Shown here: in pieces, positions 1 to 45,014 of the stretch
How the letters are laid out: every line of letters starts with the position of its first letter
How positions within the stretch are numbered: position 1 is the stretch's first letter
Origin: Escherichia phage vB_EcoM_LNA4
DNA: 64,000 nucleotides
Direction: 5' to 3' (one strand)
Sequence record: MZ311864.1
Notes under the pieces: generated by a model
The model's input: the letters and a program-made list of their open reading frames with translations, nothing else
Database searches by the model: none
What the model was told of the DNA's origin: nothing
Program-made: the position numbers and the translations under genes

Positions 1-629
1 TTTCCTGCGGATAGCCCCTCCAAGAACTTCTTACCGATTAAATACGCATCGGCGTAGTCAGCCTTTCCTGCTGCAAGAGTAACACCGTCTAACCACCCCG
101 GATAGTCGTAATCAACGGCCTTAACCATCATGGCTTTGTCCATCTTAACTTTGGAGCGTGATGATACCATTTTATTCTTCTTTTTGTCAAGCTTTTCCTT
201 AGTTACCCACTGCTCTTCCTCTGGAAGGAGGCTACGGGCAAAAGACTTAACAGAAGTCGGTGCAACAGTATGGATGTTAAAGTATTCAATAAAGTGATTA
301 CCACAACCATCCAAGCTAAGGGCAATGCAGTAGAACAGACCTGCAAGGTCCCTTGTGGCACTACCAATAGACCCAAGACTCAGTGCTTCCATCACATAAT
401 CATCTGGAGAATACTCAGTACACAGTTCATTTATCCTTTTACAGATATGCTCGATCTGCTCATAAACGGTGTCAAAGTAGTAAACTTCCGGGTTTTGCTT
501 TCCCTTGCTCTTGGTAGAACCAGTCCTGATCATCTCCCGATAAATAGGAGTCCCATCACTCCAGATAACAACGGCACAATGGGACAAAGACTGATCAACA
601 GACATCAAAACATAAGGGAACTCACTCAT
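1..629 (-). CDS. RNase H-fold nuclease, RuvC-like putative Holliday-junction resolvase (3' end beyond window start)
   Basis: Minus-strand ORF starting at ATG 629-627, checked codon by codon and open to position 1 (>208 codons). N-terminus MSEFPYVLMSVDQS. with Asp/Glu spacing reminiscent of RuvC. Absent from the supplied ORF track because it has no stop in the window. Confidence 0.3.
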   Translation of the reverse strand, partial: MSEFPYVLMSVDQSLSHCAVVIWSDGTPIYREMIRTGSTKSKGKQNPEVYYFDTVYEQIEHICKRINELCTEYSPDDYVMEALSLGSIGSATRDLAGLFYCIALSLDGCGNHFIEYFNIHTVAPTSVKSFARSLLPEEEQWVTKEKLDKKKNKMVSSRSKVKMDKAMMVKAVDYDYPGWLDGVTLAAGKADYADAYLIGKKFLEGLSAG

Positions 630-17028: not shown

Positions 17029-17105
17029 GGTTCTGTAGCTTAGCTGGTTAGAGCGCTTCCCTCATAAGGAAGAGGTCGCAGGTTCAATCCCTGCCAGAAC
17101 TACCA
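17029..17105 (+). tRNA. tRNA-Met/Ile2 (anticodon CAT)
   Basis: 7-bp acceptor stem, anticodon loop CTCATAA, T-loop GGTTCAATCC, encoded CCA. Confidence 0.6.
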
Positions 17106-17119
17106 AACGAGGAGAGACC

Positions 17120-17287
17120 ATGAATAAGATTTATGATTTTTTCGGAATTGGTAAACCCAAGAGCATGTCTTCAAACTGGGACTCCAGAATGGACTCATCT
17201 GTAGGGAATAGTAATTCTGTGTACGACCGTTATGATGTTTCACTCGGTCTTCATAAAGAAACGAAAAAAGATTCAAAAAACGATTGA
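17120..17287 (+). CDS. small hypothetical protein
   Basis: 55-aa ORF with GAGGAGAG Shine-Dalgarno, directly after the first tRNA. Confidence 0.4.
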   Translation: MNKIYDFFGIGKPKSMSSNWDSRMDSSVGNSNSVYDRYDVSLGLHKETKKDSKND

Positions 17288-17312
17288 CAAAGGAAGTACG
17301 AGATATTAGTAT
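17284..17312 (+). promoter_or_regulatory. sigma70-like promoter TTGACA-N17-TAGTAT
   Basis: -35 at 17284-17289, -10 at 17307-17312; upstream of the ORF at 17357. Confidence 0.5.
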
Positions 17313-17356
17313 TACCAACGTCAACAAGACATTAGCAAATAGAGGAGAAATACAAC

Positions 17357-17686
17357 ATGGCTAAGAAAAACGCAACTAAGAAAGTTTCTGCAATCGACGC
17401 AATCAAACAGCCTTTCCAGTTTGAGTCGAAGTCAACGCAGACTCACTCTGCACCACACGATGTTCGTCTGGGCGGTGTAACCAAGACCGTTTCCGTTCGT
17501 AAAAAGCGTCGTGATGAAGACGGCAACGTTGTATTCATCTGGGAATCCGTTTCCCGCGTTGAAGGTGGTCAGGTAATTTCTGCCTCACACCGTGTTCGCA
17601 CTGGCAAGACCAAGCGTGAACGCGCTGGTAAAGCCAAAGACGCTAAGGTTGTTGAAGCCGTAGCGCCGAAAGGTAAGAAGAAGTAA
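17357..17686 (+). CDS. basic Lys/Arg-rich hypothetical protein
   Basis: 109-aa ORF with AGAGGAG Shine-Dalgarno and highly basic termini. Confidence 0.5.
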   Translation: MAKKNATKKVSAIDAIKQPFQFESKSTQTHSAPHDVRLGGVTKTVSVRKKRRDEDGNVVFIWESVSRVEGGQVISASHRVRTGKTKRERAGKAKDAKVVEAVAPKGKKK

Positions 17687-17894
17687 TAAAGCTTTACTGA
17701 ACTGATGGTTTGTGTTGAAATGGCGCTGTCGAAAATTGTCGGCAGGGTCATAGTAAACAGTCGCCCCAGTTCGGTAATTAATTCCTCCGGCATGGGGATA
17801 GACGAAGCTGGCTGCGGCGATGCGTCTTAAAATAAAGGGCTGCGGCAACCGTGACGATTCCGTGCAACGTCTTGAAAAACACGGACCTGATTTC

Positions 17895-17970
17895 GGGGTA
17901 TTAACTCAGCGGTTAGAGTAGCGGCCACTTAAGCCGAAGGTCGAAGGTTCGAATCCTTCATGCCCCACCA
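17895..17970 (+). tRNA. tRNA (anticodon loop CACTTAA; candidate Lys-CTT with A33)
   Basis: Clean acceptor, D and T arms (GGTTCGAATCC) and CCA; position 33 is A rather than U. Confidence 0.45.
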
Positions 17971-18084
17971 TTTTTTGGAATGAGAGAGATACGGGTTCGA
18001 CTCCCGTTCTTGCTGGCCCGGCTCGCGTAATGGCGCAGGGCGATAGCTTAAATGGACGAAAGTGCTCTTGTTTCAAAAAACTTC

Positions 18085-18113
18085 TTGACAATGAAATTTT
18101 TAAAGTGTAGTAT
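18085..18113 (+). promoter_or_regulatory. sigma70-like promoter TTGACA-N17-TAGTAT
   Basis: -35 at 18085-18090, -10 at 18108-18113; upstream of the ORF at 18145. Confidence 0.5.
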
Positions 18114-18144
18114 CACAACTCAATTTTACGCAAAGGAGAACTTA

Positions 18145-18756
18145 ATGTCTGATTCTAAAACTGTAATTTCTGTAACTGAACGCGCTACCAAAGCTGTTGC
18201 AACTGCTGCAACTGGCCTGAGTAAGGTTGTTGCTGAACTGCAATCTCTGGCTGAAGGCTCTGAACGTATCAGTCAAGAAATTCAGTTCAAACAGCAAGAG
18301 CTTGGCAATATCGAAGTCCAGTTCAATGAAAAACTGGCTGAAGAAAAATCTAAGCTGAAGATCAAAGTTCTTGAAAATGAAGACGGTGTACTGAACACCC
18401 TTCTGAAGGCTCGTGGCCTTGTAGCTATCGAACCGGGTGTTGTAGATGGTCTGCGTCACGAACTGGCTGTCGCTCAGTCTGGCAATGAAGATGCGATCAA
18501 TACAGCAGTTGATGCTGCAAAACGTTCTGCTGCTATCGAACTGAACGCTGTTAAGTCCAATCTGGAATCAGCACACAAAGTTGCGATTGCTGAACTGAAC
18601 GCCAATACCAAGGCAGACAAAGATCGTATCGCAATGCTGACCGAACAGCTTGAAGCTGCCCGTGCAGACCTGAAAGCAGAACGCGAAACCCGTCTGGAAA
18701 TCGCTAAAGCTGATGCGAACCGCCAGGGTGTTGTAGTTAACACTGGTAAAAACTAA
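18145..18756 (+). CDS. coiled-coil hypothetical protein
   Basis: Track ORF trimmed to ATG 18145 with AAAGGAG Shine-Dalgarno; Ala/Glu/Lys-rich heptad-like sequence. Confidence 0.5.
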   Translation: MSDSKTVISVTERATKAVATAATGLSKVVAELQSLAEGSERISQEIQFKQQELGNIEVQFNEKLAEEKSKLKIKVLENEDGVLNTLLKARGLVAIEPGVVDGLRHELAVAQSGNEDAINTAVDAAKRSAAIELNAVKSNLESAHKVAIAELNANTKADKDRIAMLTEQLEAARADLKAERETRLEIAKADANRQGVVVNTGKN

Positions 18757-18765
18757 TACCGCCGT

Positions 18766-18783
18766 GCCGACACGGATGTCGGC
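18766..18783 (+). terminator. GC hairpin (terminator-like, no T-run)
   Basis: GCCGACA-CGGA-TGTCGGC immediately after the stop at 18756. Confidence 0.3.
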
Positions 18784-18833
18784 AAACATTTGAAGTACAT
18801 TTAAAATTTAAAGTTCATTGAGAGGAGAATTAT

Positions 18834-19481
18834 ATGTCTACTAAGATTTCTGTAACCCGCGCTCTGGCAACTCTGACCAAGATCGAGGGCAAGATCGAAA
18901 AGCGTATCGACCAGTTGAACACTGTTCAGATCGCAAAAGGGACGGAAGATCACCGTTCGATCCCAGGTTCTCTGGTTAGCATTGCTGACTTCGAGACTTC
19001 TGCTAAGGCAGACTTCCAAGGCCTGAAAGACCTGCTGGCAGTACGTGATGAACTGAAGGCGAAAGTTGTTCAGTCCAACGCAGTAACTCTGGTCACCGTT
19101 GGTGGTAAAGAGATGACAGTTGCTCAGGCAATTGAAGGCAAGCGCACAGTTGCTTACAAAGAACTGCTCCTGTCCAAGCTGAAAGCGCAGTACAACTTCG
19201 CTCAGAAGCGCCTTGATAAAGAAGTCGCTGACTTCGAAACCAAGCTGGAACAGGCCCGTGCTCCGTACATCAGTCGTGACAAAGCGCCTGATCCAGAGCA
19301 GATTAAGACGGTAGAAGGTCCGACCCGTCTGATGAGCACACCGTCTATCGTTGACCCGCTGGGTCTGGCAGACGTAATCCGAAATCTGGAGACAGAGATC
19401 GAAGACTTCAAATCCAACGTTGACTTTGTGTTGTCCGAGTCTAACGCACGGACTGAAGTGGAGATTGAGGGATCAATCTAA
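18834..19481 (+). CDS. hypothetical protein
   Basis: 215-aa ORF with GAGAGGAG Shine-Dalgarno. Confidence 0.5.
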   Translation: MSTKISVTRALATLTKIEGKIEKRIDQLNTVQIAKGTEDHRSIPGSLVSIADFETSAKADFQGLKDLLAVRDELKAKVVQSNAVTLVTVGGKEMTVAQAIEGKRTVAYKELLLSKLKAQYNFAQKRLDKEVADFETKLEQARAPYISRDKAPDPEQIKTVEGPTRLMSTPSIVDPLGLADVIRNLETEIEDFKSNVDFVLSESNARTEVEIEGSI

Positions 19482-19489
19482 AATAACTT

Positions 19490-19521
19490 GAGGAATTATG
19501 AAAAACATCTTGTAATTCCTC
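19490..19521 (+). terminator. hairpin GAGGAATTA/TAATTCCTC (terminator-like)
   Basis: 9-bp inverted repeat with a 14-nt loop, 9 nt after the stop at 19481. Confidence 0.3.
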
Positions 19522-19697
19522 TCGTTAACTGATAAAGTTTCAAAATGCTGTTTTTTGGTTAGCGAAGTTGGAAACATCTTGCCTCTACCGAGGCCGGAGG
19601 TTAAACTGCCTCGAACTTAATCATAAGGATGATACTTAACGTATGTTTCCGCAGACCACAACTCTGCCGAAAATATCGAATCGCGAATTCGAAAGAC

Positions 19698-19739
19698 TTC
19701 AAAGTTCAACATTCAAAGATTAAAGTTCAAAGCTTAATG
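19698..19739 (+). repeat. three tandem 14-bp units, each starting TTCAAAG
   Basis: TTCAAAG at 19698, 19712 and 19726 (14-bp period) within a 340-bp ORF-free region. Confidence 0.4.
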
Positions 19740-19868
19740 TTTAAACTTGAAACTTCTAAACCACAAAGCTAAAATTTCGTTGATTATTAAAATCCTGGGT
19801 CAAAGGTCCTTAGCTCACAAGATATGGCTAACCACACCTCCGGGCAGTTAATCGGAAACAGCATTCTT

Positions 19869-19943
19869 GCTCCTAAAGCATAAGTGGCGATGCAGCGGCC
19901 TTGTAAGCCGAGGAAGTGGGTTCGATTCCTACTGGGAGCACCA
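19869..19943 (+). tRNA. tRNA-Thr (TGT)
   Basis: Acceptor GCTCCTA/TGGGAGC, anticodon loop CTTGTAA, T-loop GGGTTCGATTCC, CCA encoded. Confidence 0.6.
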
Positions 19944-19949
19944 AACAAT

Positions 19950-20023
19950 TCGTTGATAGCCTTAGCGGTAAAGGCCCCCTCTGCGCAAGGGGTTCAGTGG
20001 TTCGAATCCACTTCAGCGAGCCA
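19950..20023 (+). tRNA. tRNA-like element, non-canonical (anticodon-position GCG, C37, 3-nt variable loop); possible pseudo-tRNA
   Basis: Good acceptor stem, T-arm AGTGGTTCGAATCCACT and CCA, but the anticodon loop CTGCGCA and D/variable regions are atypical. Confidence 0.3.
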
Positions 20024-20025
20024 AT

Positions 20026-20134
20026 GCAGGGTAGGCGGTTTGTCAACCGCGAGGTCCATCCAGACCTGAAAATAGCTCTCGGCTTGGAGTGGAGAGTGAA
20101 TACATAGGTGGTTAGATTCCACCACCCTGCTCCA
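20026..20134 (+). tRNA. tRNA-like element with a 38-nt insertion between anticodon arm and T-arm
   Basis: 7-bp acceptor GCAGGGT/ACCCTGC, D-stem GCGG/CCGC, anticodon arm AGGTC-CATCCAG-GACCT, T-arm GGTGG-TTAGATT-CCACC and CCA; far too long for a standard tRNA. Confidence 0.25.
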
Positions 20135-20325
20135 AAACATATTTTAAAGTGCATTAGCTCAGATTATTTGATTCACGGACTGATCATCTGTGAGGAGAAT
20201 GAGCCTAACTGAATGGAGTTTCAACGACAAAGGCCACGTTGTTGTAACAGAAGTTCTAAGGTCGTAGAGCGCTGTTCGCGGAGAACAGAGGTCGGTGGAG
20301 TCACCATGCAGCTTAAAATATGTTT

Positions 20326-20403
20326 GCGCTCTTGGTCCAATCTGGTAGAGGCATGGGTGTTAAGCTCCCAGGGTTCCCGGTTCGAGTCCGGGAGGGCGCA
20401 CCA
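20326..20403 (+). tRNA. tRNA with anticodon TAA (Leu-type) in a short-variable-arm scaffold
   Basis: Acceptor GCGCTCT/AGGGCGC, T-arm CCCGG-TTCGAGT-CCGGG, CCA; anticodon stem has a closing mismatch, loop GTTAAGC. Confidence 0.4.
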
Positions 20404-20406
20404 GAA

Positions 20407-20481
20407 CGGGGTATAGTCTAGAGGATAGGCAGGAGTCTTCTAAACTCCTTTACGTAGGTTCGAATCCTACTACCTCGACCA
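20407..20481 (+). tRNA. tRNA-Arg (TCT)
   Basis: Canonical cloverleaf; anticodon loop CTTCTAA; T-loop GGTTCGAATCC; CCA. Confidence 0.65.
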
Positions 20482-20486
20482 CTTAT

Positions 20487-20560
20487 GCGCGGTTGCTGGA
20501 GTGGCAACAGCTTCGGCTGCAAACCGAATGTCAGGTGTTCGATTCACCTACCGTGCTCCA
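20487..20560 (+). tRNA. tRNA-Cys (GCA)
   Basis: Anticodon arm TTCGG-CTGCAAA-CCGAA; T-arm AGGTG-TTCGATT-CACCT; CCA. Confidence 0.6.
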
Positions 20561-20599
20561 AGTTGTTGATATTTTTTGCTATAAATGATAAAATAACCC

Positions 20600-20628
20600 T
20601 TGACAGAGATATTGAACTCTGATAACAT
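20600..20628 (+). promoter_or_regulatory. sigma70-like promoter TTGACA-N17-TAACAT
   Basis: -35 at 20600-20605, -10 at 20623-20628; upstream of the ORF at 20647. Confidence 0.45.
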
Positions 20629-20646
20629 GAATAAGTGGGGTTAATT

Positions 20647-21012
20647 ATGGCAACAAAACAAGCACTTACCAAGCGTCGTAGAGGTAAGGGTCGTCCTTTA
20701 AAAGAGGAGTCTAACGCAATTCAGCTTGAGAAGAACATTCTTGATCTGAAAACAAAGATGATTGCTATGATCCCTGATGCACATATGGTCCTTCGTGATC
20801 TTATGATGAACAAGGATACTAAAGACAACATCCGTGAGAATATTGCTCGTTTCGTTATTGAGGAAGGTAAGCAAATGCTTTCTGATTACTTCGATGAAGA
20901 GAACGAAAATGAAGAAGAAACAAAGAACGTCGATGATGGTTCCGGAAAGGGCGCTGATAAACCAGTAGCAAAACCTTTCTCAACTGACATCGTACAGTTC
21001 AAACAAGGTTAA
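20647..21012 (+). CDS. hypothetical protein with basic N-terminus
   Basis: Track ORF trimmed to ATG 20647; TKRRRGKGRP basic segment, acidic C-terminal half. Confidence 0.45.
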   Translation: MATKQALTKRRRGKGRPLKEESNAIQLEKNILDLKTKMIAMIPDAHMVLRDLMMNKDTKDNIRENIARFVIEEGKQMLSDYFDEENENEEETKNVDDGSGKGADKPVAKPFSTDIVQFKQG

Positions 21013-21014
21013 TT

Positions 21015-21102
21015 GGGGCGGTTCCCGGAGCGGCAAACGGGCGGGATTGTAAATCCCTTGGCATCGCGTCCTTCGTAGGTTCGAGTCCTACTCGCCCCAC
21101 CA
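21015..21102 (+). tRNA. tRNA-Tyr (GTA), long variable arm
   Basis: Acceptor GGGGCGG/TCGCCCC, anticodon loop TTGTAAA, 17-nt variable arm, T-arm GTAGG-TTCGAGT-CCTAC, CCA. Confidence 0.55.
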
Positions 21103-21108
21103 ATTAAC

Positions 21109-21183
21109 GGGAGTATAGCTCAGTGGTAGAGCAAACGGTCGATAACCGTTAGGTCGCTGGTTCAAGCCCAGCTACTCCCACCA
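21109..21183 (+). tRNA. tRNA-Ile (GAT) with C33
   Basis: Canonical arms (GCTCAGTGGTAGAGC D-arm); anticodon loop TCGATAA has C at position 33. Confidence 0.5.
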
Positions 21184-21189
21184 ATTTAA

Positions 21190-21263
21190 GCGGTTAAGCA
21201 CAAGGTGTGTCGCAGGCCTTCCAAGCCTCGCAGAGTAGGGTTCGATTCCCTCTAACCGCTCCA
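21190..21263 (+). tRNA. tRNA-Gly (TCC)
   Basis: Acceptor GCGGTTA/TAACCGC; anticodon loop CTTCCAA; short D-arm; CCA. Confidence 0.55.
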
Positions 21264-21270
21264 AATAAAT

Positions 21271-21346
21271 GCTCCTATCGGCTAAACGGTCAGGCCGCCA
21301 GACTTTCAATCTGGAAATCCGAGTTCGATTCTCGGTGGGAGTGCCA
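21271..21346 (+). tRNA. tRNA-Glu (TTC)
   Basis: Anticodon arm CCAGA-CTTTCAA-TCTGG; T-arm CCGAG-TTCGATT-CTCGG; CCA. Confidence 0.6.
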
Positions 21347-21353
21347 AATTTGT

Positions 21354-21430
21354 AGGGACTTAGCACAATTGGCTAGTGCAGCGGATTCCAAATCCGCAGG
21401 TTCTGGGTTCGAATCCCAGGGTCCCTGCCA
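21354..21430 (+). tRNA. tRNA-Trp (CCA)
   Basis: Anticodon arm GCGGA-TTCCAAA-TCCGC; T-arm CTGGG-TTCGAAT-CCCAG; CCA. Confidence 0.6.
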
Positions 21431-21435
21431 GTTTT

Positions 21436-21511
21436 AGGAGGATGGTGTAATTGGTTAGCACACGGGGCTTTGATCTCCGGAGTTAGGGTTCGAGTCCTTA
21501 TCTTCCTGCCA
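21436..21511 (+). tRNA. tRNA-Gln (TTG)
   Basis: Anticodon loop CTTTGAT; T-arm TAGGG-TTCGAGT-CCTTA; CCA. Confidence 0.55.
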
Positions 21512-21625
21512 AGTTTGAGTGTTTTTATTTGAAAGCACTCATGCGTGGCCTAAGCATTTATCAGATGATGTTCAACCTGTGACGTTGAGGAAGTGGGAGC
21601 GATACCCACAGGTCACCCCAATTTT

Positions 21626-21718
21626 GGTGGAATGGTCGAGCGGTTTAAGACAGCACCTTGGAAAGGTGTCGGCCCCTTCAAACGGGGTCCGTAGGTTCGA
21701 ATCCTACTTCCACCGCCA
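21626..21718 (+). tRNA. tRNA-Ser (GGA), long variable arm
   Basis: Acceptor GGTGGAA/TTCCACC, anticodon loop TTGGAAA, ~21-nt variable arm, T-loop GGTTCGAATCC, CCA. Confidence 0.6.
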
Positions 21719-21732
21719 CTTTAGGAGATATT

Positions 21733-21888
21733 ATGCAGAAACTTTTGCGTTGTAAAAAGGTATTTGGACGCTGTAAGATTCACGGTAGTAACTGTGGTGT
21801 TGCAGATGAAATTCAATCAATCCCTATTACTCGTGCGAAAGAAAAAGCAGATCTTCGTAAAGAAATTAAAGAACAATTGGAAGATTAA
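21733..21888 (+). CDS. small Cys-rich hypothetical protein
   Basis: 51-aa ORF (track ORF trimmed to ATG 21733, AGGAG Shine-Dalgarno); its last codons overlap the 5' end of the next tRNA. Confidence 0.35.
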   Translation: MQKLLRCKKVFGRCKIHGSNCGVADEIQSIPITRAKEKADLRKEIKEQLED

Positions 21889-21969
21889 CCCTAACGGTAA
21901 GGGATCTCTTTGCTAAAGAGACAGTAGCCCCTGAAAAGGGGTGTGTCAGTTCAAGTCTGACATCTTCCT
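21879..21969 (+). tRNA. tRNA-Ser (GCT), long variable arm, CCA not fully encoded
   Basis: Acceptor GGAAGAT/ATCTTCC, anticodon arm TCTCT-TTGCTAA-AGAGA, variable arm with CCCC/GGGG stem, T-arm GTCAG-TTCAAGT-CTGAC. Confidence 0.5.
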
Positions 21970-21971
21970 CC

Positions 21972-22060
21972 GGAGAGCAGGCTGCATGGTGCAGACTCCG
22001 GTTTGAACCCGGTCCCATCGTAGCGATACGGTGACAGTTCGATTCTGTTGCTCTCCTCCA
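21972..22060 (+). tRNA. tRNA-Ser (TGA), long variable arm
   Basis: Acceptor GGAGAGC/GCTCTCC, anticodon loop TTTGAAC, long variable arm, T-loop AGTTCGATTCT, CCA. Confidence 0.5.
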
Positions 22061-22065
22061 AATAT

Positions 22066-22152
22066 GGGTTGGTAGCCAAGCGGCGACGTATGTCTAAGGC
22101 ACTCGACTTTTAATCGAGGGATCGTTGGGTTCGAATCCCACCCGACCCACCA
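22066..22152 (+). tRNA. tRNA-Lys (TTT) with expanded D region
   Basis: Acceptor GGGTTGG/CCGACCC, canonical anticodon arm CTCGA-CTTTTAA-TCGAG, T-loop GGGTTCGAATCCC, CCA; about 10 extra nt in the D region. Confidence 0.45.
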
Positions 22153-22157
22153 TACAA

Positions 22158-22260
22158 CGGGACGATAGTTTAATGAGGCTGGAAATGCGACGGCAACCAG
22201 CGGAGCAGAATGACGGGCATCCAGGACCGTAGGTGAGGTGCAAACCCTCAGATCCCGCCA
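22158..22260 (+). ncRNA. structured tRNA-like element (unclassified)
   Basis: 5' CGGGA pairs with 3' TCCCG followed by CCA; internal hairpins including TGAGG-TGCAAAC-CCTCA; not foldable into a standard cloverleaf by hand. Confidence 0.2.
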
Positions 22261-22321
22261 AATTGAAATAAGTTAAAATAATCCTTGCAAAAGATTGTTT
22301 TCACTGATAAAGTAATTACAT

Positions 22322-22410
22322 GGTTCTTTGACCGAGAGGCCGATGGTAGCAGGCTGTTAACCTGCCTGGAGTAATCCACGACGAAGGTTCGAATCCTTCA
22401 GGAACCGCCA
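22322..22410 (+). tRNA. type-II (Tyr-like scaffold) tRNA with anticodon GTT and discriminator G73 (candidate Asn decoder)
   Basis: Acceptor GGTTCTT/AGGAACC, Tyr-like D region CCGAGAGGCCGATGGTA, anticodon arm GCAGG-CTGTTAA-CCTGC, 17-nt variable arm, T-loop GGTTCGAATCC, G73-CCA. Confidence 0.45.
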
Positions 22411-22453
22411 AATTAGGTGATACGCTACCTTAAGTGCGAACTTGAAAATTAAT

Positions 22454-22530
22454 GGGGCCGTGGCTGACAAGGTAATGGTGCCGCACTGTCTATGCGGAAA
22501 ATGAGGGTTCGATCCCCTTCGGTCTCGCCA
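22454..22530 (+). tRNA. tRNA-Asp (GTC)
   Basis: Acceptor GGGGCCG/CGGTCTC (with G-U pairs), anticodon arm CCGCA-CTGTCTA-TGCGG, T-loop GGGTTCGATCCCC, CCA. Confidence 0.5.
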
Positions 22531-22713
22531 ATTTGATATGTTGATGTAAATTGCCGGAAGGCACTCAAAATGAGTTCGACATATCAAACCAAATACGCTC
22601 TTGCAGGAAAGGTTAGCCTCCCTGCAATGTCACACTAGGTGATCAGAGCGGATCAAATTAGCTAGCCAGCGATACCAGTTGCAGTGTCTGGGACAATTAA
22701 AATTCTGCACCTT

Positions 22714-22791
22714 CGGAGCGTAGCGCAGTCTGGTCAGCGTGGGAGCCTTGGATGCTCTGGGTCGCAGGTTCGAATCCTGCCGCTCCGACCA
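22714..22791 (+). tRNA. tRNA-Pro (TGG)
   Basis: Acceptor CGGAGCG/CGCTCCG, anticodon loop CTTGGAT, T-loop GGTTCGAATCC, CCA. Confidence 0.6.
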
Positions 22792-22796
22792 ATTTA

Positions 22797-22872
22797 GCAG
22801 GTATAGTTCAACTGGACAGAGCATCAGTTTACGAAGCTGAGAATCGGGGTTCGAATCCCTGTATCTGCACCA
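22797..22872 (+). tRNA. tRNA-Arg (ACG)
   Basis: Acceptor GCAGGTA/TATCTGC, anticodon arm TCAGT-TTACGAA-GCTGA, T-loop GGGGTTCGAATCCCT, CCA. Confidence 0.6.
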
Positions 22873-22907
22873 AATTAAGGCTTGGATTTCTTCGGACCCA
22901 AGCGCAC

Positions 22908-22984
22908 GGGCGATTGATGGAATTGGTATACGTGTCGGATTTAGATTCCGAATTTTGGGGGTTCGAGTCCCCTGTCGCCCACCA
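22908..22984 (+). tRNA. tRNA with anticodon TAG (Leu-type) in a short-variable-arm scaffold
   Basis: Acceptor GGGCGAT/GTCGCCC, anticodon arm TCGGA-TTTAGAT-TCCGA, 5-nt variable loop, T-loop GGGGGTTCGAGTCCCCT, A73-CCA. Confidence 0.5.
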
Positions 22985-22991
22985 ATCCTTC

Positions 22992-23067
22992 GGGACTGTA
23001 GCTCAGTTGGTAGAGCACCTGATTGAAGATCAGGGTGTCGGTGGTTCGAATCCACTCGGTCCCGCCA
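22992..23067 (+). tRNA. tRNA-Phe (GAA)
   Basis: Textbook cloverleaf: D-arm GCTCAGTTGGTAGAGC, anticodon arm CCTGA-TTGAAGA-TCAGG, T-loop GGTTCGAATCC, CCA. Confidence 0.7.
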
Positions 23068-23073
23068 AATAAT

Positions 23074-23146
23074 TGCGAGCTAGAATTCTGGTGAATTCAC
23101 GAGTCTCATAAGCTTGTTCAGAGGGGTTCGATTCCGCTGCTCGCAA
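23074..23146 (+). tRNA. tRNA-Met/Ile2 (CAT), CCA not encoded
   Basis: Acceptor TGCGAGC/GCTCGCA, D-arm GAAT/ATTC, anticodon loop CTCATAA, T-loop GGGGTTCGATTCC. Confidence 0.5.
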
Positions 23147-23163
23147 CTAACAGAGGACTTAAT

Positions 23164-39850: not shown

Positions 39851-41263
39851 ATGGCTTATAATGATAAGGTGGTTGACGTTACGGTCACGCTTGGTACTCA
39901 ACCAATCGACACCAAAGGGTTTGAAACCCCGCTGTTCCTGGCTATCCACAACGTCTTCCCTGAACGTTTTCGCGCCTATACCGAACTCGATCAGCTAGTA
40001 GATGATGGATTCGCTCCAGGTTCCCCAGCTTATGTCTTCGCAACAAAAGCATTCGCTGGTACATTCCGTCCTCAGTACCTGATGGTTGGTCGTCAAGGCT
40101 TCACTAATACCATCGTGGACTTCACTGGACAGGTAAATACCGACCCTGAAGCGCCTGTAGCCCTGAACGTAGTTTCCGGTGCTTATCAGACCAGCGTTAT
40201 CGTGGCGGTAACTGGTGCATCCACCCCAACCAGTATTGCTACCGCTCTGGCAGCATCTCTGAATGGTGATGCAACACTGACCACTGTTTTAACTGCAACC
40301 GCCAGCGCAGGTGTGGTAACAATCGCTCCTAAGAATGGTGGTGCATTCAGCGTCGGTCGCGATAGCGGAAACATGACTATCAGCAACACCTCTGGTGAAA
40401 CTGTGTCCTCTGTTCTTCCTCAGATCCTGACTGCAACTGAGAACTGGTACTTCCTGAGCACCGAGTCTCACACCAACGCATCCATCCTGGCTGCTGCTGC
40501 ATTTGCTTCTGCTAACTACAAGCTGCATGTGTATGCAACCGCCGATGAACTGGTTAAAACTGCTGGTAGCAACTCCATTGCTAACCAACTGAAAGCCCTC
40601 CAGTACGATACTTCTATCGGTATGTATGATCCGCTTGCGGATAGCGCATTCTCTGAAGGTGGTATCATCGGTGCAATGGCTTCCAACGATCCTTCTTACG
40701 GTGACTCTATTCACCTGAAGACAATGGAAGGTGTGATTGCTCCTACCCTGAGCGCTACCGACCGTATGACCATTTGGGGACAAAACTTGAACTTCTACCG
40801 TATGATTAACGGTGTTGGTTCCTTCTACGAAGGTAAGTGTGCTTCTGGCAACTACGTAGACGTTGTTCGTTTCGGTCACTGGCTGAAGTTCCGCACAGAA
40901 GAGAGCGTGTTTGGTTACATGTCTCGTCGTTCTAACATGGGTCTCTCCATGAAGATGAGTGATGACGATCTGCCAAACCTGAAGTCCGTGATGATGAACA
41001 ACCCAATCAACGTTGGCATCACCAACGGCTCTATCCTGACGGGATATGATGACGTAAACAAAGTGTTCTACGATCCGGTGATCACAATCCCGCTTCGTGC
41101 AAACATCCCGACTAACGATCTGGCTGCTCGTACTCTGAACAATGTGAAAGTGGAACTTGTGTACAACACACCACTGCACTTCGTTAAGATCCGCATGACC
41201 GTTCTGTTAGATAAAACAGGGTCTAGTTCCGGAAACGGTCAGACTGTAACAGCAGGAGTGTAA
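39851..41263 (+). CDS. tail sheath protein
   Basis: 470-aa ORF directly upstream of tube, chaperone and tape-measure genes (P2-like order); assigned by position and size. Confidence 0.5.
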   Translation: MAYNDKVVDVTVTLGTQPIDTKGFETPLFLAIHNVFPERFRAYTELDQLVDDGFAPGSPAYVFATKAFAGTFRPQYLMVGRQGFTNTIVDFTGQVNTDPEAPVALNVVSGAYQTSVIVAVTGASTPTSIATALAASLNGDATLTTVLTATASAGVVTIAPKNGGAFSVGRDSGNMTISNTSGETVSSVLPQILTATENWYFLSTESHTNASILAAAAFASANYKLHVYATADELVKTAGSNSIANQLKALQYDTSIGMYDPLADSAFSEGGIIGAMASNDPSYGDSIHLKTMEGVIAPTLSATDRMTIWGQNLNFYRMINGVGSFYEGKCASGNYVDVVRFGHWLKFRTEESVFGYMSRRSNMGLSMKMSDDDLPNLKSVMMNNPINVGITNGSILTGYDDVNKVFYDPVITIPLRANIPTNDLAARTLNNVKVELVYNTPLHFVKIRMTVLLDKTGSSSGNGQTVTAGV

Positions 41264-41266
41264 TAA

Positions 41267-41740
41267 ATGAATACAGCTATCCTAACACCGTATGCTTACG
41301 ACCCTAAAAAAGTCAAGCTATACCTGATGACTCAGCGTGTTACTGGATTTGCCGCAGATACCAAGATCGTCGTTGCTCGTAACGAAGATAACATCATCCC
41401 CCACATGGGGGTTGATGGTGAGCTATCCGCTGCACTGTCCCGTAACCAATCTGGTGTTATGACAGTTTCCCTCCAGAACACCGCTTCTTGGAACGGAAAC
41501 TTCGCAAACTGGCAGAAACAAGCCTCCATCACCGGGCTGATCTTCTTCCCTGTCCTTCTTGAAGGTTCTCAGGGTATGGGTCTCAGCACTATCGGTTGGA
41601 TTCAGAAACAACCAGACCTGACCTACGGTACAGAAGTGGGCCAGATGGACTGGGAAATCGGTATCCTCGACGCTTGGTTAAGCCCAGATACTCTGTCTTC
41701 CGCAGGCTTCGGTCTTGCTGGTCTTGCAGGTATCGTATAA
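41267..41740 (+). CDS. tail tube protein
   Basis: 157-aa ORF between the sheath and chaperone genes. Confidence 0.5.
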   Translation: MNTAILTPYAYDPKKVKLYLMTQRVTGFAADTKIVVARNEDNIIPHMGVDGELSAALSRNQSGVMTVSLQNTASWNGNFANWQKQASITGLIFFPVLLEGSQGMGLSTIGWIQKQPDLTYGTEVGQMDWEIGILDAWLSPDTLSSAGFGLAGLAGIV

Positions 41741-41815
41741 GTGTTTCGTGTGCCACATGGACGTGGCCTTTCACACACGTAAGGATCTCTCAATCTCAAA
41801 GACGCAGGAGCGTAC

Positions 41816-42289
41816 ATGAATATCAGACCAACAACTGAAATCGACCTCGCAGGTCACAACTTTGTTATCACGCACTGGTCTCCTTCCAAGGTTATGAAAA
41901 ACCTTCCGAAGATCGGTCGTTATGTAGCAGTCCCTATGGCAACCATCTCTGGTTCCATGATGACTGGAGGCCAGAACCTATCTGACGCCCTCCCAACTGC
42001 TATTCTATACCTCTTTGAACAGATGGAGCAAGATGATATCGAAAAACTTTTCGCATTGATTCTTGAGGATGTATCCGTTGATGGTATGGCGGGTAAAGTA
42101 GATATTGACGCTCTGTTCCAAGATAAAATGTTAGACCTCATTAAGCTTGTTGCTAAAGTTCTGGAGATTAACTACGGCTGTTTTTTCACGAAAGACGGTT
42201 TCGCAGACCTTCAGGGACTTCTGGGACGCCTGGGACAGACCCATCAAGTGAATACGGTGGATCAGGCGACGGAAGTGGCAGCGGAGTAA
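41816..42289 (+). CDS. tail assembly chaperone (G/E-like)
   Basis: 157-aa acidic ORF upstream of the tape measure gene; contains a slippery heptamer near its 3' end. Confidence 0.5.
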   Translation: MNIRPTTEIDLAGHNFVITHWSPSKVMKNLPKIGRYVAVPMATISGSMMTGGQNLSDALPTAILYLFEQMEQDDIEKLFALILEDVSVDGMAGKVDIDALFQDKMLDLIKLVAKVLEINYGCFFTKDGFADLQGLLGRLGQTHQVNTVDQATEVAAE

Positions 42290-42567
42290 CACCGTCCAAA
42301 ATTTCGAAAGTCGTCCTGAGAGCTATGGAGTATGCAAAGAAAAATAGCTCACTGACTTGGTTCGATTACTTGTGGTGTCGTGCTCTGAAAAATTTCAAAG
42401 GGGAATCTTATATGTCCCTTGAACATGCGGATATGGCCTATCTGCTCAGGCTGAATGAATTTCTTGATGTGGAAGAGTTTGTCAACGATGTCCACGAGAG
42501 AGAGGAAGATAGTAAAGCAAAAGCTGCTCAAGCCGCTAACAAGCCGCGCCGTGGTAGAAGAGGTTAA
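41816..42567 (+). CDS. tail assembly chaperone frameshift product (GT/E'-like) via -1 frameshift
   Basis: The -1 frame is open from 42172 to 42567 and overlaps the chaperone ORF by 118 nt; the shift is predicted at T_TTT_TTC. Confidence 0.4.
42181..42187 (+). other. -1 programmed ribosomal frameshift slippery heptamer T_TTT_TTC
   Basis: In the zero frame the codons are tgt-TTT-TTC (C-F-F); X_XXY_YYZ pattern. Confidence 0.45.
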
Positions 42568-42620
42568 TCTCAAGCCGGGTTCCTTTTCGGGAACCTGGCT
42601 TTTTTATTGAGAGGAAATCA

Positions 42621-45014
42621 ATGGCGAACATTATTGTTACCCAGACAGTCAACAAGGTTGTTTGGGATGTTGATAAGACATCCTACGGACGCGCTCTGAA
42701 AGCCGTCAAGTCTTTGAAGACAGAATGGGAAAAAGCTGGTAAGGCGTTCTCTGCCAGCAAGTCCGACCCCGCAGCAGCACTAAAGCGTTCAGCAATGCAA
42801 GCTCGCCTTGTCAACAAAAGACTGCAACAGACTGAACGTGCTGAACAAGCAAAGACCACAGCCCACAATATCGCGATGGCGAAGAAAGAGGCTCGTGCTC
42901 GTGAAGCAATTGATAAGATCCAAAGAGCACGTAGGAAACAAGCTGTAGCCCAGCTTACAGCAAAACGCTCACCAGAGTCTCAGGCTGATTATAATGGACT
43001 AAAAGCTCGTCTGCGTCAAATGGAAAAAACAGGGGGTGGTTACGGTACTAATCCTGCAATTTCCGCTGCACGTCAAGCTGCACTGCAAGAAGAACTGGCT
43101 CGCCGTTCTAAATCAGGAAACGCTTCAGGTATGGTTGGTAGTGGTACTGCCTCTGATCCGGCACTGATTGCTCGTCAAAACCGTGCAATGCAACAGCAGG
43201 TCCAGCGTCAACAGCAGAAAGCATCCAGAGAGCAACTTCGTGCTCGTGAACAAGCTCGTAAGAAACAAGAGGCAGAAGACCTTCGTTACTCTCGTTATCT
43301 TGCAGGTAAAGAATCTACCGTAGCCAACGCTGCTGTACGTCTTCGTGCAAAATATGGTGATAACTACGCAACGAAACTCAAGGGTTTCGACTCCTTGAAA
43401 GAAAGATTCCTTGACAGCAACACAATGAAGTCTTCTAACTTCCGTGCTGAACTTGCTGCTATGGAGACCGGGCTTCGTAAAGCAAATCAGAACACCCTCT
43501 CCCTGACAGATGGGCTGAAGAACCTGCGTAGCACACTAGTCAGTGTCACTGCTGCTTACGGAGCATTCAACGCTGCTGCAAGTGTTGTAAGAACAGGTCA
43601 GTTCTTCCAGGGTATGGAGGCCACTATGTTGATGGTTTCTGATAACTCAGAGGAGGCTGGTAAGCGCATGAAGTTTGTCCGTGACCAGTCCTACCGTTTA
43701 GGTCTTGATCTTAAGGTAGCGGCACAGGGTTACACGCAGATGGCTATCGCTGCTGACGGTGTTCTGAGTAAATCACAGAACGATGAGTTGTTCAAGTCTT
43801 TCTCTGAGTATGCAACAGCCCTACAGGTTGACCCGGTTAAATACCAACGTGGTATTACCGCGATTCAACAGATGATGGGTAAGGGTCAGATCATGGCTGA
43901 AGAACTTAAGCAACAACTTGCGGAAGGTATTCCGGGTTCTTTACAGGTGTTCATTAAGGCTTCTCAAGAAGCATTCAATGACTCCACCATCGACGTAACC
44001 AAGATGCTCGACATGATGCAGAAGGGTGAGTTGAAGGCTGCTAAAGTTCTACCGTTCGTTGCCAAGTATTACTCTCAAGCTGCAAATAAGGGTGGCGCTC
44101 TACAGACCGCTCTGAAAGGTAACCGTGTTGCAATGCAGCGCCTGACGCTGACATGGATGGACTTCCAGAACAAGGTGTTTGCAAGTGGTTTTGGTGACTC
44201 ATTAACTGAAGCTTTCAACGAACTCTCAAAAATTCTTGACTCCAACGGGCCTTTGGCTCAGAATCTGGGTCAATTCTTCAAGGGGTTCACTGATGGGTTC
44301 ATGTTTATGGTCTACACTGTCTACAACACCTTTGTCCTCATCCAGGGGATCATGGAGCGCTACATCCCGATCTTCCGTAAAAACGGTGAAGAACTTTCCT
44401 CTGCATGGAAATGGGTTGGATGGGGTCTTGGTGCTCTGTTCTTTGCTTCTGCACTTTTCCGTGTGTTCAACATTCTATCCAAAATTGCTGGCCTTTCCGG
44501 AGCACTCGGCTTCCTGAAGACCATCTTTGGTGGCCCTGATGATGAGGAAGGCGGTGGCGGCGATGGTAAGAACAAGAATCGTAAAGGCCCTCGTTTCGGT
44601 AAGTTTGGTAAGGCTGCTCGCTGGTTTGGTCTTTACGGACTAATTGCCGGGGAGAGTATGCTTGCTGGTGATTGGGTGTTCGACCAAGCCCAGGACTACA
44701 GCGACAAGACCTACGGAACTGAGACCACCGCAGGTGGTAACCTTAAGAAAAACTCTTGGATGGGTCAGACGTGGGACTTCATCACAGGACAGAGATCAAT
44801 GACTGACCAGCGCAGACTTGATTATCTGAACCAGAATGGTATGGTTCCTGGACCAGCAGGGGCAGCAACACCTCCGATGGTCATTCCGACAGAACCTGTT
44901 AACGGTGAGATTACGATCAAAATCGACGCAGGCGAAATGAAGAACATGATTGACCAGCAGATTGAAGCTGCGAACATGGGTAACATCAACCTAATCCTTG
45001 GTGTTCCTCAATAA
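42621..45014 (+). CDS. tape measure protein
   Basis: 797-aa, Ala/Gln/Arg-rich coiled-coil N-terminal half, hydrophobic segments (WVGWGLGALFFASALF) and a Gly-rich region near the C-terminus; follows the frameshifted chaperone. Confidence 0.7.
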   Translation: MANIIVTQTVNKVVWDVDKTSYGRALKAVKSLKTEWEKAGKAFSASKSDPAAALKRSAMQARLVNKRLQQTERAEQAKTTAHNIAMAKKEARAREAIDKIQRARRKQAVAQLTAKRSPESQADYNGLKARLRQMEKTGGGYGTNPAISAARQAALQEELARRSKSGNASGMVGSGTASDPALIARQNRAMQQQVQRQQQKASREQLRAREQARKKQEAEDLRYSRYLAGKESTVANAAVRLRAKYGDNYATKLKGFDSLKERFLDSNTMKSSNFRAELAAMETGLRKANQNTLSLTDGLKNLRSTLVSVTAAYGAFNAAASVVRTGQFFQGMEATMLMVSDNSEEAGKRMKFVRDQSYRLGLDLKVAAQGYTQMAIAADGVLSKSQNDELFKSFSEYATALQVDPVKYQRGITAIQQMMGKGQIMAEELKQQLAEGIPGSLQVFIKASQEAFNDSTIDVTKMLDMMQKGELKAAKVLPFVAKYYSQAANKGGALQTALKGNRVAMQRLTLTWMDFQNKVFASGFGDSLTEAFNELSKILDSNGPLAQNLGQFFKGFTDGFMFMVYTVYNTFVLIQGIMERYIPIFRKNGEELSSAWKWVGWGLGALFFASALFRVFNILSKIAGLSGALGFLKTIFGGPDDEEGGGGDGKNKNRKGPRFGKFGKAARWFGLYGLIAGESMLAGDWVFDQAQDYSDKTYGTETTAGGNLKKNSWMGQTWDFITGQRSMTDQRRLDYLNQNGMVPGPAGAATPPMVIPTEPVNGEITIKIDAGEMKNMIDQQIEAANMGNINLILGVPQ

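Follow-up and report, generated by a model that had tools for sequence, protein, structure and literature searches.

A conserved slippery heptamer in the gene for the tail assembly chaperone of a Seunavirus-like Escherichia phage suggests a programmed −1 ribosomal frameshift

The DNA analysed here, referred to as the window, is a stretch of 64,000 nucleotides from Escherichia phage vB_EcoM_LNA4 (MZ311864.1), a Seunavirus-like (Vequintavirinae), contractile-tailed myophage with a genome of ~145 kb. Genes for the tail sheath, the tail tube, the tail assembly chaperone and the tape measure protein follow one another in the window, with an ORF in the −1 frame lying between the last two (Table 1). 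The same order is found in the annotations of the relatives. The chaperone ORF is preceded by the Shine-Dalgarno sequence AGGAG at 41806-41810, and its translation, a protein of 157 aa with 17.2 kDa and a pI of 4.7, has the C-terminal end ...EINYGCFFTKDG...AAE before the stop codon. It matched the Pfam family PF21822 (Phage_TAC_15) over residues 13-129 with an E-value of 3.3e-27 and a score of 96 bits, the cutoff being 22, as well as phrog_3840, annotated as 'tail assembly chaperone' (E 1.2e-71); phrog_1613, which carries the same label, was matched too. Judging by these family assignments, the ORF is a tail assembly chaperone gene.

Table 1. Features of the chaperone locus and its neighbours (positions in the window).
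Feature	Position	Strand	Basis
Tail sheath gene	39851-41263	+	phrog_205 'tail sheath', E 1.4e-111; RefSeq/GenBank annotation of relatives
Tail tube gene	41267-41740	+	phrog_280 and Pfam KPP10_Orf10; RefSeq/GenBank annotation of relatives
Tail assembly chaperone, zero-frame short form ('G'-like)	41816-42289	+	ORF list, Pfam, PHROG
Slippery heptamer T_TTT_TTC	42181-42187	+	read from the sequence; X_XXY_YYZ phase
Predicted −1-frame extension ('T'-like), 126 codons and stop	42187-42567	+	translation; alignment of −1 peptides of relatives
Putative dual-coding overlap: C-terminal 33 aa of the short form (frame 0) and start of the extension (frame −1)	42188-42289	+	substitution pattern
Putative −1-frame coding stretch from the zero-frame stop to the first ATG (42325)	42290-42324	+	substitution pattern
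GC-rich 13-bp hairpin followed by a T-run, intrinsic-terminator-like	42572-42607	+	terminator scan
Tape measure protein gene, 797 aa	42621-45014	+	Pfam TMP_3, E 3.5e-14; full-length match to phrog_5255

The hairpin listed in Table 1 follows the stop codon of the extension and precedes the tape measure gene. Every Vequintavirinae relative, and Aeromonas phage 2L372X as well, keeps the hairpin and T-run, though with a stem that differs in sequence; the phi92-like phages lack this combination.

From 42172, directly behind a −1 stop at 42169-71, the −1 frame runs open to the stop codon at 42565-67, overlapping the chaperone ORF by 115 nt. Near the start of this overlap, 9 nt past the opening of the −1 frame, begins a canonical slippery heptamer, whose zero-frame codons TGT (42179-81), TTT (42182-84) and TTC (42185-87) encode Cys122-Phe123-Phe124. 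When −1 motifs were measured in E. coli, U_UU.U_UU.C came out among the efficient ones (PMC4066793). Two other routes into a second frame were considered and rejected. The heptamer is the only in-phase one in the overlap, which leaves no other slip site, and the +1 frame stays open for merely 5-23 aa past the stop in all 28 loci compared below. The positions and slip-competent phase of the chaperone ORF and its heptamer, together with the extent of the open −1 frame, had been given in a preliminary description of the window and were confirmed. The phage also carries a gene for tRNA-Phe(GAA), at 22992-23067; this is the tRNA that must slip on U_UUU_UUC.

Slippage at the heptamer would append the 126 codons of the extension, 91-92 of which fall past the zero-frame stop, to the first 124 residues of the chaperone. 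The predicted 'GT'-like product has 250 aa and 27.9 kDa, compared to 157 aa and 17.2 kDa for the short form. The extension is made up of an ERRFRRP motif, a Gly/Ser/Thr/Pro-rich linker, a domain reading KISKVV..SSLTWFDYLWCR..LNEFLDVEEF and, at its end, the basic tail KPRRGRRG. The preliminary description had correctly noted this tail; its extension of 80 aa corresponds to the ATG-delimited ORF 42325-42567 and falls short of the 126 aa counted from the slip site. An alignment of the −1 peptides from 24 distinct relatives revealed that both the ERRFRRP motif and the domain are conserved, the motif, directly after the slip site, as far as the phi92-like and Barba phages. The extension matched phrog_10409 (E 3.8e-48), a PHROG family labelled as of unknown function. 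The two forms are predicted to differ in their tryptic peptides, with the junction peptide VLEINYGCFFHER for the long form and VLEINYGCFFTK for the short one.

In the AF2 model of the short form, the core of residues 1-125 was predicted with confidence and residues 126-157 with low confidence. The confident core thus stops at approximately residue 125, which coincides with the slip site and which we count in favour of a frameshift. The AF2 model of the 250-aa fusion, run without an alignment, had a pLDDT of 45 and was unusable, and a PDB sequence search with both halves of the fusion gave no match.

The comparative set comprised 28 related loci with chaperone identities from 100% to 27%, and spans Seunavirus, Vequintavirus, Certrevirus, Stephanstirmvirinae, Barbavirus, Plateaulakevirus and one Vibrio phage. 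These loci share ancestry and hence do not represent 28 independent trials. In every one of them, the −1 frame was open across the chaperone stop, with an overlap of 82-154 nt and 73-97 aa past the stop, and an in-phase X_XXY_YYZ heptamer was located inside the overlap. The heptamer was TTTTTTC in 26 loci, and the two most distant relatives carried GGGAAAG (Rheinheimera phage Barba28A) and AAATTTT (Vibrio phage 249E41-1). At one locus a −1-frame TAG abuts the heptamer, and the entry point into the −1 frame is thereby fixed. The conserved G/GT-type arrangement ahead of the tape measure gene, likewise part of the preliminary description, was borne out by the Pfam and PHROG identity of the chaperone, by all 28 loci and by the position of the tape measure gene from 42621.

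The substitution pattern around the heptamer was analysed as well. The TTT-TTC nucleotides were invariant in all 26 sequences having TTTTTTC, with the preceding residue varying between Cys, Ser and Pro, whereas codon choice varied in all remaining degenerate columns where the amino acid, Pro, Asp or Tyr, is invariant. Since Phe-Phe is also conserved as amino acids, part of the nucleotide conservation of the heptamer is conservation at the protein level. For frame 0, the fraction of synonymous differences was 0.49 for codons 1-118, 0.13 for codons 119-125 and 0.25 for codons 126-157. Within the overlap, at 42188-42289, the three −1-frame codon positions were constrained about equally. Past the zero-frame stop, at 42290-42324, we observed 0.19, 0.12 and 0.44 differences per site for −1 codon positions 1, 2 and 3, respectively, among 19 relatives, whose −1 peptides showed 83% amino-acid identity over this stretch. 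The stretch lies ahead of any conserved start codon and, according to this pattern, evolves as −1-frame coding sequence.

A downstream stem-loop or pseudoknot, which the preliminary description had proposed to look for as a stimulator, was not supported by any of three approaches. The folding z-scores were −1.23 for the 113 nt and −0.25 for the 63 nt after the heptamer, that is, nothing beyond shuffles; the consensus fold of 14 relatives after the heptamer amounted to −2.36 kcal/mol with 0 compensatory pairs; and an Rfam scan of 41700-42700 gave noise only. The conserved stem-loop or pseudoknot that stimulated −1 signals of the dnaX, IS911 or IS3 type have 5-9 nt 3' of the slip site was not found here. 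The upstream, Shine-Dalgarno-like stimulators of such signals lie ~10-14 nt 5' of the slip site, and in the window a GGAG at 42163-42166 precedes the heptamer by 14 nt. The Leu-Glu that it encodes is conserved; the GGAG itself is not, being absent from the Klebsiella-phage, Certrevirus and Aeromonas-phage relatives. Like that of lambda, the slip site seems to function in the absence of a conserved RNA stimulator.

The downstream ORF might instead be a separate small gene of ~80-88 aa, translated from its own start at ATG 42325 or by reinitiation past the chaperone stop at a non-canonical codon, for example ATT 42301, and never fused to the chaperone; the heptamer and the long overlap would then be incidental. 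It is treated as a separate gene by every inspected public record that annotates the region. Joined CDSs were absent from all 15 annotated public records inspected, RefSeq entries included, which contained either a separate downstream CDS ('hypothetical protein') or no downstream ORF. In one record, iGC_PHA_EC001, the label 'tail assembly chaperone' seemed at first to apply to the downstream region; the record was discarded as an example, the downstream ORF being simply unannotated there. A separate gene is also in line with the weak GAGAG element 2 nt upstream of ATG 42325 in the window and with the ORF having a PHROG family of its own, phrog_10409. ATG 42325 is, however, not conserved: the Klebsiella and Erwinia phages have an Ile codon instead, and the rV5-type phages a Ser codon. 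Within 83 codons after the heptamer, ATG, GTG and TTG are all missing from the Klebsiella-phage relatives, and the peptide ahead of that point is nonetheless conserved. Moreover, the annotated starts in the public records (ATT, ATG, GTG or TTG) differ in position, yielding ORFs of 53-88 aa, and some of them cut into the conserved WFDYLW motif. In annotations, the stretch 42290-42324 is either left as non-coding or entered from an ATT codon. A separate gene is equally hard to reconcile with the coding-type selection in the −1 frame over 42290-42324, with the −1 frame being kept open far upstream of the chaperone stop and always with an in-phase heptamer, and with the synonymous suppression in chaperone codons 119-157. 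We therefore regard a separate gene as very unlikely.

By transcriptional slippage, a fraction of the transcripts would gain one extra U as RNA polymerase copies the T6 run at 42181-42186. Their ordinary translation would give rise to the identical 250-aa fusion (...CFFHER...), and protein data are for this reason unable to separate the two mechanisms. The site is indeed a homopolymer run, and E. coli genes avoid UUUUUUU, for which slippage is a possible reason (PMC4066793). Well-characterised bacterial transcriptional slippage, however, requires runs of ~9 A or T (PMC5009743), whereas the run found here is only T6 and stops at an invariant C. In the two most distant relatives the corresponding heptamers are GGGAAAG and AAATTTT; both are classic slip sites for ribosomes, and their runs are just 3-4 long. 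In addition, the X_XXY_YYZ phase is kept at every locus, and phase matters to ribosomes, not to RNA polymerase. Slippage of the polymerase is, in our view, most unlikely.

We also asked how often such a configuration arises by chance. Across the 65 putative genes of the window, in-phase X_XXY_YYZ heptamers occurred at 0.0025 per codon, which corresponds to ~0.1 expected heptamers in the 38-codon overlap. For a single genome alone, the heptamer is a roughly 1-in-10 coincidence. The pattern is nevertheless far beyond chance because it is conserved in all 28 related loci. Of the 65 genes, the chaperone gene alone has both a −1 extension and, within the overlap, a heptamer. TTTTTTC itself was rarer in the window than expected, with 7 sites compared to 18.8 ± 4.0 in shuffles, and the site at 42181 was the only in-phase TTTTTTC inside an ORF of at least 60 aa. 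That the heptamer merely encodes the conserved Phe-Phe, with no functional recoding and with a −1 ORF that is a relic or else an unrelated gene that overlaps, is compatible with the single-genome expectation and with the conservation of Phe-Phe at the protein level, but is scarcely credible given its recurrence at every locus, its replacement by other heptamers in distant lineages, the invariant codon choice where other conserved residues vary synonymously, and the avoidance of TTTTTTC elsewhere in the genome.

Taken together, the data support the frameshift reading of the preliminary description. Very probably, some ribosomes slip within the chaperone gene and make a longer second protein, and we are highly confident that this 250-aa form would arise by a programmed −1 ribosomal frameshift of the G/GT type at T_TTT_TTC. 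The frameshift itself is something we infer, as its basis lies at the level of the sequence and not of the protein. According to the model, the majority of ribosomes would translate the chaperone ORF to its stop codon and release the 157-aa chaperone. A minority would slip when the P site is occupied by UUU (42182-84) and the A site by UUC (42185-87). The two tRNA-Phe would then move back by one base and re-pair on UUU-UUU (42181-86), so that CAC at 42187 would become the next codon, and translation would continue in the −1 frame down to the stop at 42565-67. In the long form, the chaperone core (residues 1-124) would thereby be joined by a flexible Gly/Ser-rich linker to the conserved helical C-terminal domain, with the basic tail at the end. 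By analogy with lambda gpG/gpGT, whose mechanism is described in a review (PMC5009743), the N-terminal part shared by both forms would coat the tape measure protein, and recruitment of the tail tube protein would fall to the −1-encoded domain, allowing the tube to polymerise around the tape measure. Following the same analogy, the short and the long form would both be required for tail assembly, at a fixed ratio, and neither would remain in the finished virion.

It is conceivable, if improbable, that the tRNA-Phe supply, the stimulator-free site with its invariant seventh base and the hairpin together form one unit of stoichiometry control. If so, the tRNA supply of the phage could set the ratio of short to long chaperone, and the hairpin at 42572-42607 could set the dosage of the tape measure protein.

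Our literature searches revealed no report of a frameshift for Vequintavirinae, rV5 or Seunavirus, nor any protein, ribosome-profiling, reporter or genetic data on one in a Vequintavirinae phage, and the chaperone is not mentioned in the cryo-EM papers on phiTE and phi92. With the 250-aa fusion as the query, a search of 5.8 billion database proteins yielded only short forms, 149-162 aa long, and no homologue that was fused or full-length. The chaperone locus is present in ~500 deposited phage genomes, among them Vequintavirinae, Stephanstirmvirinae, Barbavirus, Plateaulakevirus and others, several of which are candidates for therapy or biocontrol. Recognising the frameshift would correct their annotations and define the real 250-aa long form of the chaperone. 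It would also offer a clean, stimulator-free and deeply conserved T_TTT_TTC site for studies of frameshift ratios in contractile-tailed phages. The knowledge of the mechanism would be unchanged, this being a known phage trick, yet one that is unannotated in the databases for this phage group.

Contractile-tailed phages of the T4-like type need both short and long chaperone forms (Vladimirov, Gautam and Davidson 2022, as cited in PMC10274946). Some of them encode the short form and the fused long form as separate genes, with no frameshifting (summarised in PMC10274946). The phage analysed here differs in that no fused homologue was found, and its long form can arise only by a change of frame.

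A −1 chaperone frameshift has also been proposed for Vandenendeviridae and Andersonviridae, where its site would be a conserved GTTTTT motif, with Pakpunavirus Adele and Moogle as the respective examples (PMC12846349; PMC4319497). The site is not reported for Vequintavirinae or Stephanstirmvirinae in these papers. The families are related and share the synteny of the structural module, and there, too, the downstream ORF is routinely a 'hypothetical protein'. GTTTTT is found where their short-form gene has its 3' end, and most of our loci carry (T/A)GTTTTTTC, a candidate counterpart. The argument likewise uses a −1 frame that is uninterrupted across divergent genomes.

A chaperone frameshift such as that of lambda gpG/gpGT is reportedly conserved among the dsDNA tailed phages (Levin et al. 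1993; Xu, Hendrix and Duda 2004; reviewed in PMC5009743). Phage P2, with gpE and gpE+E', is said to be a myovirus case of the same frameshift, its chaperone pair reportedly lying between the tube and tape measure genes with the T-rich slip site T_TTT_TTG. This heptamer differs from the one described here in its last base. Compared to lambda, the slip site is T_TTT_TTC instead of G_GGA_AAG, and our phage is contractile-tailed with ~145 kb and a chaperone of the Pfam family Phage_TAC_15. Nevertheless, the two systems have in common two ORFs that overlap, with the major tail (tube) gene on one side and the tape measure gene on the other, the lack of an evident RNA stimulator, and a −1 downstream ORF without a start of its own, from which a short and a C-terminally extended product, predicted in our case, would result.

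The putative frameshift site lies in the tail module of a phage with a contractile tail, a member of the subfamily Vequintavirinae. Nucleotides 41267-45014 share 91% DNA identity with Cronobacter phage GAP31, Enterobacter phage EC152, and Escherichia phage 4MG, and 82-86% with Salmonella phage PVP-SE1 and its relatives of the genus Seunavirus. The chaperone ORF was matched by its Pfam family with an E-value of 3.3e-27 (96 bits, cutoff 22) and by its PHROG, "tail assembly chaperone", with an E-value of 1e-71, and it has a good Shine-Dalgarno sequence (AGGAG, 41806-10). The tube gene, the chaperone ORF, the -1 ORF, and the tape measure gene follow each other in this order, which bears out the G/GT-type placement just 5' of the tape measure gene claimed in the preliminary description. 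In the Barba phages (Rheinheimera phage Barba28A), a reverse-strand gene for a "putative DNA binding protein" separates the chaperone pair from the tape measure gene. The pair thus does not always adjoin the tape measure gene.

Features of the tail module, related loci, and tRNA genes (window coordinates unless a locus is named)
Feature	Coordinates	Strand	Remarks
Tail sheath gene	39851-41263	+	phrog_205
Tail tube gene	41267-41740	+	phrog_280, Pfam KPP10_Orf10
Tail assembly chaperone ORF, 157 aa	41816-42289	+	Pfam PF21822 Phage_TAC_15, phrog_3840
Shine-Dalgarno-like GGAG	42163-42166	+	
Small ORF	stop at 42567	+	-1 frame
Terminator-like element	42572-42607	+	
Tape measure gene	42621-45014	+	Pfam TMP_3, full-length phrog_5255
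Double heptamer	L024 1872-1881, L026 1872-1881, L027 1854-1863		phi92- and phAPEC8-like phages
Inserted gene of Barba28A	L023 2120-2758	-	"putative DNA binding protein"
tRNA gene cluster	17029-23147	+	22 tRNA genes
tRNA-Phe(GAA)	22992-23067		within cluster

The slippery heptamer and the open -1 frame that had been proposed for the chaperone ORF were both recovered. TTTTTTC is read at 42181-42187, and the -1 frame is open from 42172 to 42567, with -1 stops at 42169-71 and 42565-67 and none between. The zero-frame codons at the site are TGT TTT TTC (Cys122-Phe123-Phe124), so that TTTTTTC sits in the X_XXY_YYZ phase that tandem -1 slippage needs. After the slip, decoding restarts at CAC (42187) and continues for 126 codons. 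The extension does end in the predicted basic tail (KPRRGRRG), but its supposed length of 80 aa is that of the ATG-delimited ORF 42325-42567. The long form comprises 124 + 126 = 250 aa (27.9 kDa) and the short form 157 aa (17.2 kDa).

Very probably, tandem -1 slippage on U_UUU_UUC, on which two tRNA-Phe molecules would slip together, yields the 250-aa protein as a minor product beside the major 157-aa chaperone. The site was compared across 28 related loci from IMG/VR and GenBank/RefSeq phage records, whose chaperones are 100% to 27% identical to that of the window. The loci span Seunavirus, Vequintavirus (rV5 type), Certrevirus, Serratia phage Kashira, and Stephanstirmvirinae (phi92 and phAPEC8 types), and include Aeromonas phage 2L372X, Rheinheimera phage Barba28A, and a Vibrio phage. 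In all 28, the -1 frame runs on uninterrupted past the chaperone stop (overlap 82-154 nt, 73-97 aa past the stop), the +1 frame is shut within 1-23 codons, and an in-phase X_XXY_YYZ heptamer marks the start of the overlap. The heptamer is TTTTTTC in 26 loci, G_GGA_AAG in the Rheinheimera phage, and A_AAT_TTT in the Vibrio phage; such a swap of one canonical slip site for another at the equivalent place is hard to explain otherwise than by selection for slippage. In one related locus (L016), a -1-frame TAG directly abuts the heptamer, and hence the -1 frame can be entered there only at the heptamer itself. Three phi92-/phAPEC8-like loci carry overlapping in-phase heptamers, C_CCT_TTT then T_TTT_TTC, within CCCTTTTTTC, which may serve Stephanstirmvirinae as a tandem slip site.

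An invariant amino acid occurs in only six columns of the chaperone alignment of the 26 sequences with TTTTTTC. Of these columns, the degenerate ones that lie beyond the heptamer (Pro, Asp, Tyr) all show synonymous variation; the Phe pair is encoded by TTT TTC in 26/26, and the codon before it always ends in T while encoding different amino acids (Cys, Ser or Pro). The fraction with a different codon among pairs sharing the amino acid was 0.50 for codons 1-60 and 0.48 for codons 61-118, and lower from the site onwards, at 0.13 over codons 119-125 and 0.25 over codons 126-157; its minimum of 0.11 fell in the 10-codon window 121-130. Such a drop marks a functional element with a dual-coding stretch behind it.

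Translation of the downstream ORF by independent initiation or reinitiation is very unlikely, being contradicted by the universal overlap and heptamer, the synonymous suppression, an unconserved start, and a -1 coding signal before the ATG. At the position of ATG 42325, Klebsiella and Erwinia phages encode Ile, and rV5-type phages encode Ser. Over 83 codons 3' of the heptamer, the Klebsiella-phage relatives lack any ATG, GTG or TTG, yet the peptide KISKVVQRAIDYARKNSSLTWFDYLWCR... from this interval is kept. The 36 nt that separate the chaperone stop from the ATG (42289-42324) evolve like coding sequence of the -1 frame: differences per site were 0.19, 0.12, and 0.44 at codon positions 1, 2, and 3, and the -1 frame retained 83% amino-acid identity, a constraint at least equal to that of the ORF core. 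Straight after the heptamer, the -1 peptide reads H-ERRFRRP, with the counterparts TRFRKT in phi92-like phages and FRIPSG in the Barba phage. Public records start the ORF at ATT, ATG, GTG or TTG (53-88 aa), mostly without a Shine-Dalgarno sequence and in some cases inside the conserved WFDYLW motif. The RefSeq records of GAP31 (L001 2535-2801) and PVP-SE1 (L002 2534-2800) give a "hypothetical protein" with an ATT start lacking a Shine-Dalgarno sequence, corresponding to about 42301-42567 of the window. These inconsistent starts are artefacts of annotation in which the frameshift went unrecognised. A joined CDS is absent from all 15 annotated records that were inspected, one of which leaves the downstream region unannotated. 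Another, that of Escherichia phage NHEP1 (L030 1322-1560), breaks the region into two small fragments and labels the sheath gene only as a misc_feature, which suggests indel errors in that assembly. The evidence says that the downstream ORF is not a gene of its own.

Transcriptional slippage with one added U would result in an identical protein. We consider it very unlikely, as T6 is short compared with the ~9-nt runs known to slip in bacteria (PMC5009743), the heptamers of distant relatives hold runs of only 3-4 nt, and the codon phase is conserved. That the whole pattern is coincidental is extremely improbable, given its retention in every locus. Within the window, 65 putative genes (18,103 codons) contain 0.0025 in-phase X_XXY_YYZ heptamers per codon, so that ~0.1 would be expected in the 38-codon overlap; the chaperone gene alone among the 65 has a -1 extension with a heptamer in the -1 overlap. 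TTTTTTC is rarer in the window than expected (7 sites versus 18.8 ± 4.0 in dinucleotide shuffles), and the one at 42181 is the sole copy in phase within any ORF of at least 60 aa. Such single-genome statistics are suggestive, not decisive alone.

A stimulatory stem-loop or pseudoknot downstream, as envisaged in the preliminary description, was not supported (folding z-scores -1.23 and -0.25). The consensus fold 3' of the heptamer had five pairs, none of them covarying, at -2.4 kcal/mol, and Rfam gave no match. The GGAG, a possible stimulator, lies 14 nt 5' of the heptamer, a spacing in the range for a dnaX-type upstream element; its bases code for a conserved Leu-Glu, and the Klebsiella-phage, Certrevirus, and Aeromonas-phage relatives lack the GGAG. 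The lambda slip site is not known to need a stimulator. U_UU.U_UU.C falls into the H_HH.U_UU.Y class, which is efficient in E. coli, and shifts at >0.1% without stimulators (PMC4066793). The 53-nt gap from the -1 ORF stop to the tape measure start holds a strong intrinsic-terminator-like element, a 13-bp GC-rich hairpin followed by TTTTTTATT. Hairpin and T-run are kept in all Vequintavirinae relatives and Aeromonas phage 2L372X, with very unlike stems (compensatory changes), and are absent from phi92-like phages, whose gap is only 12-20 nt. The hairpin may be a transcription attenuator that keeps expression of the tape measure and baseplate genes below that of sheath, tube, and chaperone. One gene of the tRNA cluster of the phage encodes tRNA-Phe(GAA), which would be the tRNA to slip on U_UUU_UUC.

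In the fusion, the chaperone core is followed by a basic motif that is conserved, a linker, a conserved domain, and a Lys/Arg-rich tail. The linker (~30 aa) has many Gly, Ser, Thr, and Pro residues and is encoded by the dual-coding stretch, and the domain of ~65 aa (SSLTWFDYLWCR...LNEFLDVEEF) is phrog_10409, "function unknown". An AlphaFold2 model of the short form, with 26 sequences as input, was confident for residues 1-125 and poor for residues 126-157, indicating that the folded core ends at the slip site. The zero-frame tail (residues 126-157) looks disordered in the model, which would ease dual coding. The PDB contained no sequence matches. By analogy with lambda (reviewed in PMC5009743), the shared N-terminal part would bind the tape measure protein, the -1 domain would bring in the tube protein, and virions would end up without either form.

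No frameshift report for Vequintavirinae or Stephanstirmvirinae was found in the literature searched, and the structure papers on phiTE and phi92 make no mention of the chaperone. In 2025, the same kind of frameshift was argued for two related families, Vandenendeviridae and Andersonviridae, with a conserved GTTTTT motif as its site and likewise with mis-annotated "hypothetical" ORFs (PMC12846349). The present site offers an annotation fix for roughly 500 deposited genomes and a deeply conserved slip site without a detectable stimulator. It is the conserved tail-assembly-chaperone frameshift, reportedly described by Xu, Hendrix and Duda in 2004, here in a large myophage, and a chaperone frameshift at this place is what a specialist would expect.
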